From Octopus vulgaris (taxonomy: Eukaryota): DNA of 64,000 nt. The notes under the pieces are model-generated. The model was not told the origin of the DNA. It did no database searches and worked only from the letters and a program-made list of their open reading frames with translations. The stretch is taken from positions 80,848,001 to 80,912,000 of the forward strand of contig OX597825.1 in assembly GCA_951406725.2 (NCBI GenBank). The letters are read 5' to 3'. A program made the position numbers and the translations under genes. Position 1 is the stretch's first letter, and every line of letters begins with the position of its first letter. Below, one piece after another: positions 66 through 61,649 of this stretch.

Positions 66-220
66 GTTTTTTTTCATTCTCTCTCTATTTCTTCTTATTT
101 CTTTCTATCGAAGAGCGTAGGTTCGAAAGGTAAAAGACTTTTCCATTTTTGTCGAGTGTCAAACACTTGCTCGTTGTTCCTATACATGCCTTCGACCTTG
201 GTTTTCTATAAATTTGAACT
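66..220 (+). mobile_element. Short hammerhead-bearing repeat, family E1 (Penelope pLTR/retrozyme-like), degenerate copy ending in (TA)n
   Basis: ctttCTATCGAagagcgtaggttcGAAAggtaaaag at 101-136. The downstream body matches the E1 copies at 10100, 17805 and 33170 and runs directly into (TA)n at 220. Confidence 0.7.
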
Positions 221-460
221 ATATATATATATATATATATATATATATATATATATATATATATATATATATATATATATATACATATATATATATATAC
301 ATACATATATATACATATACATACATATATATATATGTGTATATATATATATATATATATATATATATATATACGCACACACTCACACACATATATAACC
401 CTGTATATATACCCTGGAAACTTGCATCATATGTGCGTATGTTTGTGTGTGTCTGAATAT

Positions 461-689
461 TTTTTTATTCCCTACAAGTGGATAAACATAGAGGGAACAA
501 ACAAGGACAGACAAAGGGATTAAGTCGATTACATCGACCCCAGTGTGTAACTGGTAATTAATTTATCGATCCCGAAAGGATGAAAGGCAAAGTCGACCTC
601 GGCAGAAATTTGAACTCAGAACGTAACGGCAGACGAATTACCGCTAAGCATTTCACCCGGCGTACTAACGATTCTGCCAGCTCGCTGCC
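461..689 (-). mobile_element. SINE family B (tRNA-like head plus Nin/Deu-like domain)
   Basis: The minus strand reads GGCAGCGAGCTGGCAGAATCGTTAG...GAGTTCAAAT (B-box-like)...GCCTTTCATCCTTTCGGGATCGATAAATTAA. It is near-identical to the copies at 6996 and 14391. Confidence 0.85.
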
Positions 690-849
690 CTCTGGGACAC
701 TTGTATTGGTTCTGGAACCAATCAGATCTTGCACTATGCGATTCAGTATCATAACTATTTACTGCATCCGGAGCTTCACTGATTTTCTCAACTCAATATG
801 TCCTCTTGCCTCTCCTACAGCTTTTTCTTCACATGTCTCTCAGCAACTT

Positions 850-1025
850 ATCAGAATGCGACAAGGCTGGCCCTTTTAATTACTGGAACTCATTTTTACC
901 AGCTGAGCGGACTGGAGCAATGTGAAATAAAGTTTCTTGCTTAAGAACACAATGCGTTGCTGGATATCGAACTCATGACCTAGCGATCATAAGCCAAATA
1001 TGCTGAACACTAATCGAAGCGACTT
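850..1025 (-). mobile_element. Diverged SINE family D copy
   Basis: ccagctgagcggactggagcaatgtgaaataaagtttcttgcttaagaacacaa matches the more intact copy at 29603-29853. Confidence 0.65.
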
Positions 1026-2260
1026 CGCGGAAACTGTTTGTAATAGAATTTTACATTCAGCGTTAATCCGTTTAACCCTATCTTTCCAAAACATTTCACA
1101 CAGGGCATTATAGGTTCCATTATGAGAACAGAGAGAGCCTTCCTACAAATAATAGTAGTGGTGGTGGTGGTGGTAGATTTTGACACGGAAGTGAGGTGTG
1201 CGCATGTAATTTAGTATGTTTATGTGTGTGAGTGTGTGTGTATGTGGTTGACATTATGCGTGTCTTACATTAATAGACATATCGTACGCCGAGATATCTA
1301 TGTGAATGACTTAATATATTCTAACAGAGAATAAGAAAATGGTAAAAAGAACCTTAGATCTGTTGTTAACTGTTGAAGAGTGATAAACATGATGGCGTCA
1401 AAGATCCATCCAGGAACTGTCGTTTTTGTAGAGCTTCGGTAATGACTAGTTTTATCTAAATATCTTGGATAGGATTTAAACTGAAGAACTAGAGAAATAT
1501 TCAATTCGAGCGTCTTTTAGATAAAATAGTGAATGCTCTACCGTTGGCGGTAGGCTTCGGTTGCAGTAATTTCACATTTTCCCGCTTATTTTTATCGATA
1601 AAATATAACTGCAGCTACTTGCATTCGTCTAGATGATGGATCTACATGGGTAGACATAAATATATAGATATATCAAATAGAAAGATAGAGAACGAAATAG
1701 ATATATCACTTTGATACATCACATGGATAGATCAGACACACACAAACACACGCACACATGATGGATGTATCTCATAGATAAATATATGAGATATATATAT
1801 ATATATATATATATATATATATATATATATATATATGATATATAGATATATAGATAGATATATGAGATAGATAGGGCAGATAGATAAATTGATGAATATG
1901 TGCGGTAATGTATAAAGGCGAATAAATTCGCTTTTATTCTCTTGGTGTAATTACATTTATGACCTGAACTGCACAAATAGATTGCAAGTTCATGGACAGA
2001 AGAAGGATTACTGTTCGTTTCAAATAAAGGTAAAACAACAACCACAACAAATAACTTGGAAATTCTGGTAGCCATGACAGTTGTTTTGATTGCTGGGACC
2101 TGCCATGAAGTCTAACGCTTCGTCCGGTCTTGTCACCTGGATTTGAAGCTAAAAGTAATCACTTTCCCGTCCTGTAATGAATTTAAGCAGTTCGGGCTAT
2201 AAATGTTATTACATTGGGAGAATAATGACGAATTTATTTGCCTTTACAAAGTTGCACAAC

Positions 2261-2615
2261 TATCTATCTATCTATCTATCTATCTATCTATCTATCTATC
2301 TATCTATCTATCTATCTATCTATCTATCTATCTATCTATTCTATTCTATTTATCTGTCTATCTGTCTGTCTGTCTGTCTGTCTGTCTGTCTGTCTGTCTG
2401 TCTGTCTGTCTGTCTGTCTGTCTGTCTGTCTGTCTGTCTGTCTGTCTATCTATCTATCTATCTATCTATCTATCTGTCAGTCTGTCTGCCTGCCTGTCTA
2501 TCTGTTTGTCTGTCTGTCTGAGTCTGACTGCCCGAGTGTCTGTCTGTCTATCTGCGCATGTGCGACTTCATATATATATATATATATATATATATATATA
2601 TATATATATATATAT
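2261..2615. repeat. Compound (TATC)n/(TGTC)n/(TA)n microsatellite
   Basis: Tandem tetra- and dinucleotide repeats seen directly in the sequence. Confidence 0.95.
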
Positions 2616-60300: not shown

Positions 60301-60489
60301 ATGAATTGTTGCATTTTAATTTAATTAAAGACATTTATAAAATTAAAAAAAAAAATAATAGAAATGTTTTTAAGTAGCTGAAGGGCAATCTCTGAACTTT
60401 TACGGGTAAATGAATGCCAATATTAATGAATTTAAATACATTTATACACTAATACATGTTTTATGTATGTATGTATGTATGTATGTATG

Positions 60490-61012
60490 TCCTTATTTAG
60501 TTTTATTTCAAGATTTCTCATCAATGGAGAAAGAGTCGGTTTCTAACCGAGATCCAAGACTCCTTTTTTGGAATTTCAACATCAATAACGAAACATTTTT
60601 GTATGTAAGTATATATGTGCAGATTTGTATGTTTTGCTTTATGTATGTATTTTCATGCATATAGTTGCTTATCAAGACATGCTCATATACATTTAAATGA
60701 TAAACTTCTGGAAAGTTTTACAGATTTTTGCAGTTCCGCTGATGGATTGGATCTGTTGTCTTCGAATTAGCTTTCTCCTTTCTGGTTTTGAGAAGCCTAC
60801 TTTCTCAAGATTAGTGCTTAGGCAGTGTGTTACATATCCCAGTGCCCCAGTAATTACAGGTATAAACCTGAACTTGTAATCTTGATAGAGTAACTGCAGA
60901 TTTCTCAATAGTTCAGCATAGGTGTTCTCTTTTTCACTGATCTTCAGCTTTAGGTTAACATCCGCTGGACAGCTGATTTCCACAGCTGTGCACAGTTTCT
61001 CTTCGCTATCCC
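60490..61012 (-). mobile_element. 5'-truncated R4/Dong-like LINE: restriction-like endonuclease C-terminus plus 3' UTR
   Basis: ORF WDSEEKLCTAVEISCPADVN...KISEKENTYAELLRNLQ.LY..YKF.FIPVITGALG (RLE-type E.SCP...EK..KY...P.I.GALG). The 3' end joins (CATA)n and the 5' end joins (CA)n. Confidence 0.85.
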
Positions 61013-61199
61013 AATGTGTGTGTGTGTATGTGTGTATGCGCATGTGTGTGTGCGTGTGCGTGTTTGTGTCTATGTATGTACAGGATAGAATATTACTTAT
61101 ATCATTATTATTTCCTCCTCCCCCTCCTCCTCCTCACCCTTCTTCTCCAATTTCTTTTCTCCTCCTTCTCCTACTCCTCCTTCTTCCTCTTGCTGTTGT

Positions 61200-61480
61200 T
61201 AAGTTTTTAAATTCTTCCCCTTAGTAAAGAGCGGGTTTCTAAGATACAACCATTCATCGATAGAATATAAAGAACACAATGTCACATTTTAAACTTGTGA
61301 AAAGTCTTGCATATTTTTACTGTTCCTCTTACAGGTTATATTTGTAATGTGCGAGTTAGTTGATTGATTGCTTTTACTTTTTCAGTTAGGTATTTACCCA
61401 CAATACCCAGCGCACCAATTATTGATTTCAATGTGAATTTATTATCTGGGTACAGAATATGTATGAAAGTACGTAGTACG
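61200..61480 (-). mobile_element. Second, more diverged R4/Dong-like LINE 3' fragment
   Basis: ILYPDNKFTLKSIIGALGIV...GTVKICKTFHKF is homologous to the 60693-61010 ORF end and lies next to (CATA)n. Confidence 0.75.
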
Positions 61481-61603
61481 TGTGAATGTATGTATGTATG
61501 TATGTATGTATGTATGTATGTATGTATGTATGTATGTATGTATGTATGTATGTAAATAGTATAAACATATAGGAATGAGAACCGAGATTCGAAATTTCCC
61601 CAA

Positions 61604-61649
61604 GACACCTGATGAAGGCTGGAGGGTATATCAGCCGAAACGTTGTGTT
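61604..61649 (+). ncRNA. Minimal type I hammerhead ribozyme with canonical core (family E3)
   Basis: GACAC-CUGAUGA-A-GGCUG(gaggguauau)CAGCC-GAAA-CG-UU^-GUGUU, within an island of about 120 bp between (TATG)n and (TCTA)n. Confidence 0.85.

Follow-up and report, generated by a model that had tools for sequence, protein, structure and literature searches.

Do the small ribozymes carried by Penelope-like elements (PLEs) need to cut at all? In a stretch of 64,000 nucleotides of the Octopus vulgaris genome (NCBI GenBank assembly GCA_951406725.2, contig OX597825.1, positions 80,848,001 to 80,912,000 of the forward strand; hereafter the window), ten dispersed copies of minimal hammerhead ribozyme (min-HHR) motifs were found, which fall into the groups E1, E2 and E3 and are probably the 3' terminal repeats (pLTRs) of PLEs. 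PLE hammerheads have no settled function, as they cleave poorly in vitro (PMC4209133) and, in the sole reconstituted system, are not needed for insertion (PMC11167929). E1, which has a fixed uridine at core position 6 and has amplified in this window to roughly one copy per 9 kb, lies beside E2, with an adenosine at that position, which makes the question directly testable and makes E1 a natural test of it.

Ten loci of the window carry minimal hammerhead motifs

An initial annotation, made from the letters of the window, had placed hammerheads at ten loci, and all ten were present at the positions given, with the architecture of a minimal type I hammerhead (Table 1). The window was searched with a min-HHR descriptor that left position 6 unconstrained, and matches were graded by defect count. 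Three, two and four matches were obtained with 0, 1 and 2 defects, respectively, and all nine were among the ten copies, whereas 12 block-wise dinucleotide shuffles gave on average 0, 0.08 and 0.75 matches (0.83 expected in total), which rules out a chance origin. The remaining copy, on the minus strand with its C3 at 47360, was too decayed for the descriptor and was recognised as an E1 member by nhmmer (E = 1.9e-36, with a profile that included that copy). These results showed that the motifs are real and non-random. Only three of the ten copies were free of defects, and only two of these also had the canonical A6 (C3 at 33589 and 61609). The two cut sites predicted by the annotation, after 33615 and 61644, were correct. 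Its pattern CUGnnGA masked the sole unusual feature, the U6 of E1.

The annotation had suggested a search with Rfam hammerhead models as well as with a descriptor. With the Rfam models, three loci tested singly gave no hammerhead match at E values up to 10, and for the whole window no hammerhead was among the 150 matches listed of 645, all 150 being microRNA models on microsatellites. Such a result was expected, because stem III is missing. E1 thus escapes Rfam models as well as descriptors built on CUGANGA, and counts of hammerheads in genomes of this kind are too low as a result. One further nhmmer match (38746-38831, E = 0.018) was dropped, as it sits in an unrelated repeat.

The published min-HHR consensus consists of a U-rich stretch, stem I, CUGANGA followed by an unpaired base, the pair G10.1-C11.1, GAAA, a palindrome and UH (PMC4209133). 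E2 and E3 agree with it, and so does E1 save at position 6. The copies here share with the published motifs the type I fold, the short stem I, the unpaired base between 9 and 10.1, the G10.1-C11.1 pair, the loopless palindrome at 15.2-16.2, the U-rich 5' flank, and the occurrence as several families per genome in chiefly dispersed single copies. The reading as solo pLTRs, already put forward in the annotation, thus fits feature by feature, with a putative parent PLE, and neither the extra A nor the palindrome is new, both being hallmarks known from the literature. Thousands of mostly single min-HHR copies per genome have been described, probably from truncated PLEs (Cervera and de la Pena 2014, PMC4209133), with no activity as monomers and low activity as dimers. 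In contrast to E1, all 44 alignment rows examined from that source have A6, which its descriptor required; stem II of E1 and E2, at 4 bp, is at the short end of the published range, and no parent open reading frame (ORF) was found for E1-E3 in the window. Because it lacks the A6 of CUGANGA, E1 is a variant of the min-HHR.

The survey by Lunse et al. is reportedly the largest of such variants, and it may already list changes at position 6. Our literature search, outside which that survey (RNA Biol 14:1499) lies, found no octopus min-HHR family of this type and no U6 variant, and the searchable part of the supplement of PMC4209133 contained no octopus row. What appears to be new is the U6 of E1; everything else, with min-HHR relics scattered at microsatellites, belongs to the ordinary biology of PLEs, seen here in a host not described for it before.

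Table 1. Hammerhead-bearing copies and the reverse-transcriptase fragment in the window (C3 and cut site as window positions)
Feature	Positions	Strand	C3	Cut site	Remarks
E1 copy	49..219	+	105	132	hammerhead decayed, G5 and 15.2 changed; (TA)n from 220
E1 copy	10099..10254	+	10139	10166	U6; palindrome C to U
E1 copy	11189..11475	-	11339	11312	all stems intact; U6; reference for contigs
E1 copy	13730..13906	-	13858	13831	U6; each stem with one mismatch
E1 copy	17804..18007	+	17884	17911	within (TA)n tract; U6
E1 copy	33170..33343	+	33221	33248	within (TA)n tract; U6
E1 copy	47240..47553	-	47360	47333	longest and most decayed; C6; 3' end without (TA)n
E2 copy	33519..33719	+	33589	33615	canonical CUGANGA core; all stems intact; (TA)n tract on each side
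E2 copy	50756..50954	+	50824	50850	palindrome C to U; (TA)n tracts on each side
E3 single copy	61552..61673	+	61609	61644	canonical core; stems of 5-6 bp; followed by (TATC)n, then (TA)n
PLE reverse-transcriptase fragment, Hydra-clade-like	2940..3465	+			broken (stops and frameshifts); by-eye comparison with published sequence

E1 and E2 are related subfamilies, and E3 stands apart

Pairwise identity was 70-91% among the seven E1 copies, 90% between the two E2 copies and 67-81% between E1 and E2, and an E1 profile recovered the E2 copies at E values of 9e-9 and 1.5e-6 (nhmmer). E3 had only the core in common with them, its flanks being unrelated and not alignable. The three families first proposed are therefore two lineages, one made up of the homologous subfamilies E1 and E2 and the other of E3, which is separate as proposed.

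Across the nine E1/E2 copies, 93% of the stem cells were paired, and the G10.1-C11.1 pair was present in all nine as well as in E3. Stem II of E1 was identical to that of E2, and both-sided change was found in one of eight stem pairs, a value also reached by 276 of 500 shuffles. Measured covariation was weak, and the earlier claim of covarying stems rests mainly on the single copy of E3. The CG of the palindrome was kept in five copies and altered in the other five, while U16.1 and a permitted H17 were present in all ten; in the contigs described below, C15.2 was changed to U in just 4-10%.

Folding of monomers gave an inactive minimum for all three types. A double-hammerhead dimer could be drawn at -13.9, -7.3 and -24.3 kcal/mol, lying 7-17 kcal/mol above the homodimer minimum in energies that have no tertiary terms. 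An E1-E2 heterodimer of the neighbouring copies with C3 at 33221 and 33589 was rejected, as its cross stem I pairings were mismatched by inspection.

E1 carries a uridine at core position 6

Core position 6 was U in six of the seven E1 copies and C in the seventh, and A in both E2 copies and in E3. Part of an E1-E2 stretch was present in 20 of the 24 sequencing runs listed. Contigs of four runs were aligned to one E1 copy (11189..11475, minus strand): 16105 from X2, 17948 from X5, 3836 from X7, which we presume by guess to be an RNA run, and 2 from X19, a small share whose two records do not cover the ribozyme and have no evidential value. Contig depth summed to 6-9 million over the core and to 37-51 over the unique flank; such depth does not measure copy number, and we do not treat it so. 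Its drop 5' of the core is confounded by a variable pyrimidine tract.

No U-to-A change of at least 5% was seen at position 6 in X2, X5 or X7. By summed depth, position 7 was C, U, G and A in 35, 23, 17 and 25% (X2) and in 26, 26, 21 and 27% (X5), and position 17, otherwise A, read U in 4-24%; hammerheads leave these two positions of the core free. Position 17 apart, no A or U in either the core or stem I was changed at 5% or more in the X5 tallies. Position 7 of E1 is free, and the core as a whole probably stayed constrained in the source elements, a claim that belongs to the PLE explanation given below.

A natural A6C hammerhead of phage Bcep176 is reported to have low activity in Mg2+ and to prefer Mn2+ (PMC3088659, PMC7151607). 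E1 is like it in having a natural change at core position 6, but the phage case is one locus with C6, whereas E1 is an animal repeat family of very high abundance that has fixed U6. By analogy with A6C, U6 may reduce activity. It is conceivable, and we offer it tentatively, that the E1 hammerhead, with position 7 free and its neighbours fixed, stayed under selection in its source elements after the A6U change, and that its fold was kept for a job other than fast cleavage in Mg2+, for instance to give the reverse transcriptase (RT) a handle or to cleave under the control of a protein or an ion; E2, with A6, would then be a built-in control for E1.

In the upstream block at 11440-11473 of the reference copy, contig depth was above that of the stretch between this block and the core, which suggests that the block is common to other subfamilies.

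E1 and E2 have one fixed 3' end, staggered 5' ends and a (TA)n target

Seven of the nine E1/E2 copies were about 155-205 bp long, within the 150-220 bp that the annotation gave for most copies, and the remaining two were of about 290 and 315 bp. Their 3' end was one homologous position, lying 87-104 nt past the cut site in eight copies and 123 nt past it in the copy at 11189..11475, which has a T-rich expansion close to its 3' end. The annotation had also stated that most copies end in (TA)n; the 3' end clearly touched (TA)n in six of the nine (P about 1e-8) and a degenerate tract in one, but neither in the other two, which are the copies at 11189 and 47240. TA tracts lay directly on both sides of four of the nine copies, and (TA)n is therefore the target, as had been proposed, rather than a tail.

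The 5' ends were staggered and nested, beginning 40-80 nt before C3 in seven of the nine copies and about 135 and 190 nt before it in two. Longer E1 copies exist as well, since 26 contigs of X7 extended past the reference copy on its 5' side and had the same sequence there. No copy without a ribozyme was found in the window, where four profiles of the downstream part recovered only the known copies.

The 3' ends of the two copies without (TA)n, both on the minus strand, run into non-repetitive sequence that is different in each and could be an optional PLE tail. At 33170-33750 (plus strand), an E1 copy is followed by about 87 TA units, then by an E2 copy in the same orientation and by about 15 further TA units; these are two insertions in one (TA)n tract, with cores 368 nt apart. 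The variable pyrimidine tract of E1/E2 lies ahead of the core, 40-80 nt before C3, and is followed by AG at the base of stem II. Tract and AG are a candidate splice acceptor, which we regard as a lead because the intron of Drosophila Penelope ends at stem I (PMC4209133).

Truncated PLE insertions are the best explanation

Taken on sequence comparison, E1, E2 and E3 are probably pLTRs of endonuclease-bearing PLEs with a loopless min-HHR of the type found in Poseidon and Neptune, left behind as short 5'-truncated insertions. The PLE protein would nick a (TA)n tract, and reverse transcription would start inside the RNA at a constant site, some 90-105 nt past the ribozyme cut site. Uncut RNA would be copied across the whole hammerhead, usually with a stop 40-80 nt beyond it, in or near the pyrimidine tract. 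Single copies would be inert, because stem III needs a partner to form, and the majority would be decaying. The core would be constrained in the source elements, yet the E1 lineage would have fixed U6 and still amplified heavily, so that fast cleavage was probably not needed for the spread of E1.

A comparable course is known from the anole Poseidon (PAc, Anolis carolinensis), in which reverse transcription starts 111-118 nt into the ORF and the cut site is at nt 26 (PMC11167929), which by our subtraction puts the start 85-92 nt past the cut site. PAc uses AT-rich targets and uncut RNA as template, its ribozyme mutants insert normally, and its ribozyme cleaves only with protein (PMC11167929). 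E1 and E2 resemble PAc in the fixed 3' ends about 90 nt past the cut site, the AT-rich targets and the uncut ribozyme that is kept. Unlike E1 and E2, in which no such start is found, PAc has an ORF that begins in stem II, and the targets here are (TA)n microsatellites. Priming on an uncut template, independent of the ribozyme as in PAc, would leave the whole motif in every copy and would enable a U6 family to spread.

Several points weigh against this explanation. The PAc data are an analogy, from another clade and another host. The annotation had proposed looking for PLE ORFs bordered by these repeats and for tandem copies, and neither was found in the window, where no PLE ORF adjoins any copy, leaving the parent a putative one. 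Exact-pattern scans gave 0 loci for E1 in viral, metagenome and prokaryote contigs and for E2 in metagenome contigs. Among the variants listed, the core had variable sites at 4 of 36 positions and the downstream part at 7 of 54, which is no clear deficit of the core, and 16 more lie beyond those listed, up to eight of them G/C changes in X5 that may fall within the core, CpG changes perhaps among them. Position 7 is the C of a CpG, which accounts for U there, though not for A or G. Contig depth favours young subfamilies, and contigs unlike the reference copy were not aligned. Finally, the absence of copies below about 155 bp and the clustered 5' ends fit a defined short element as well as they fit random truncation.

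Such an element would be a non-autonomous pLTR derivative resembling a short interspersed nuclear element (SINE), of about 350 bp or more when complete and detached from any ORF, mobilised by a PLE protein in trans. We consider this rather unlikely for E1/E2. The ribozyme is kept in all nine copies, thousands of contigs match E1, the longest copy begins at a (TA)n tract and holds no ORF remnant, and non-autonomous elements derived from pLTRs are on record (bioRxiv 10.64898/2026.07.22.740005). However, the staggered, nested 5' ends, together with the X7 contigs that run past the reference copy, leave no common 5' boundary.

The truncated-PLE explanation was further compared with the retrozyme-like class that the annotation had considered. 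Non-LTR retrozymes (PMC7229834; bioRxiv 10.64898/2026.07.22.740005) are likewise non-coding, a few hundred bp long, PLE-related and equipped with a type I hammerhead, but their defining traits, tandem units and circular RNA, were not seen for E1-E3 in the window and the contigs. The reading of the ten copies as scattered monomers of a tandem retrozyme that is processed into circular RNA is not supported and has only a slight chance. Solo monomers of described retrozyme families are common and evenly dispersed, and the lengths here lie within their range of 150-450 bp. Against this, none of the ten copies in the window was tandem or permuted or had the cut site as its start, the longest copy does not return to the 3' part within its upstream 190 nt, and retrozymes as described carry canonical, not minimal, hammerheads. 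The backward joints listed for the contigs of the four runs stood only at single-copy depth and none was common, with the 3'-most 72 reference bases skipped, so that a junction at the very 3' end would not be visible.

The RT fossil resembles the Hydra clade

The annotation had named a PLE RT fossil in the window as a possible mobiliser. From the DD motif on, 19 of 34 residues of the fossil were alike in Hydra-1_Obim of Octopus bimaculoides, which it also matched in the downstream WF/WY-P block, both by eye. Database searches returned no full-length relatives of the fossil, the four phmmer matches being three short similar fragments and one unrelated repeat protein, and Pfam gave nothing significant for five proteins. 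We assign the fossil by this resemblance to another family of the Hydra clade, its own 3' end being missing.

Hydra-clade PLEs target (TA)n, as E1 and E2 do, and one octopus family is listed among them (Craig et al. 2021, PMC8557442); (TA)n insertion also occurs in Naiad, and a microsatellite bias in Neptune (PMC8557442). Their hammerheads have a stem III of 3-4 bp with a loop of 1-3 nt in all 26 rows listed, each with A6, which the descriptor required (PMC8557442). None of the rows has the loopless form, and none of the ten copies here has the looped one; a search of the window for true Hydra-type hammerheads gave one match, which was implausible, and no other. In spite of the shared target, the octopus family and the likeness of the fossil, a Hydra-clade parent or mobiliser is the least probable reading and very improbable, because the hammerheads of the clade differ (an argument at clade level), the published octopus element ends, by eye, in a sequence unlike E1-E3 shortly past its ribozyme, and the fossil adjoins no E copy.

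Sequence context of the window

The window has 35% GC, is about 27% microsatellite and contains several interspersed repeat families. One family comprises 11 intervals (458-693, 6999-7244, 14391-14823, 21828-21977, 38903-40138 and others) and another 19 (e.g. 3535-3686, 29197-29582 and 44569-44952); both look like octopus SINEs, which we presume them to be. Two related remnants at 38638-38907 and 46155-46737, both on the minus strand, are presumably like the C-terminus of a long interspersed nuclear element (LINE) reverse transcriptase. We take the sequences at 11895-12761, 28500-28748 and 52462-52866 (plus strand) and at 63459-63784 (minus strand) to be broken remnants of Tc1/mariner-like transposases, and an ORF remnant at 60696-61133 (minus strand) presumably resembles the restriction-like endonuclease end of an R2/R4-type retroelement. 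Masked self-comparison of the window also gave two-copy repeats, at 50994-51135 with 52321-52460, at 26394-27897 and at 1913-2246.

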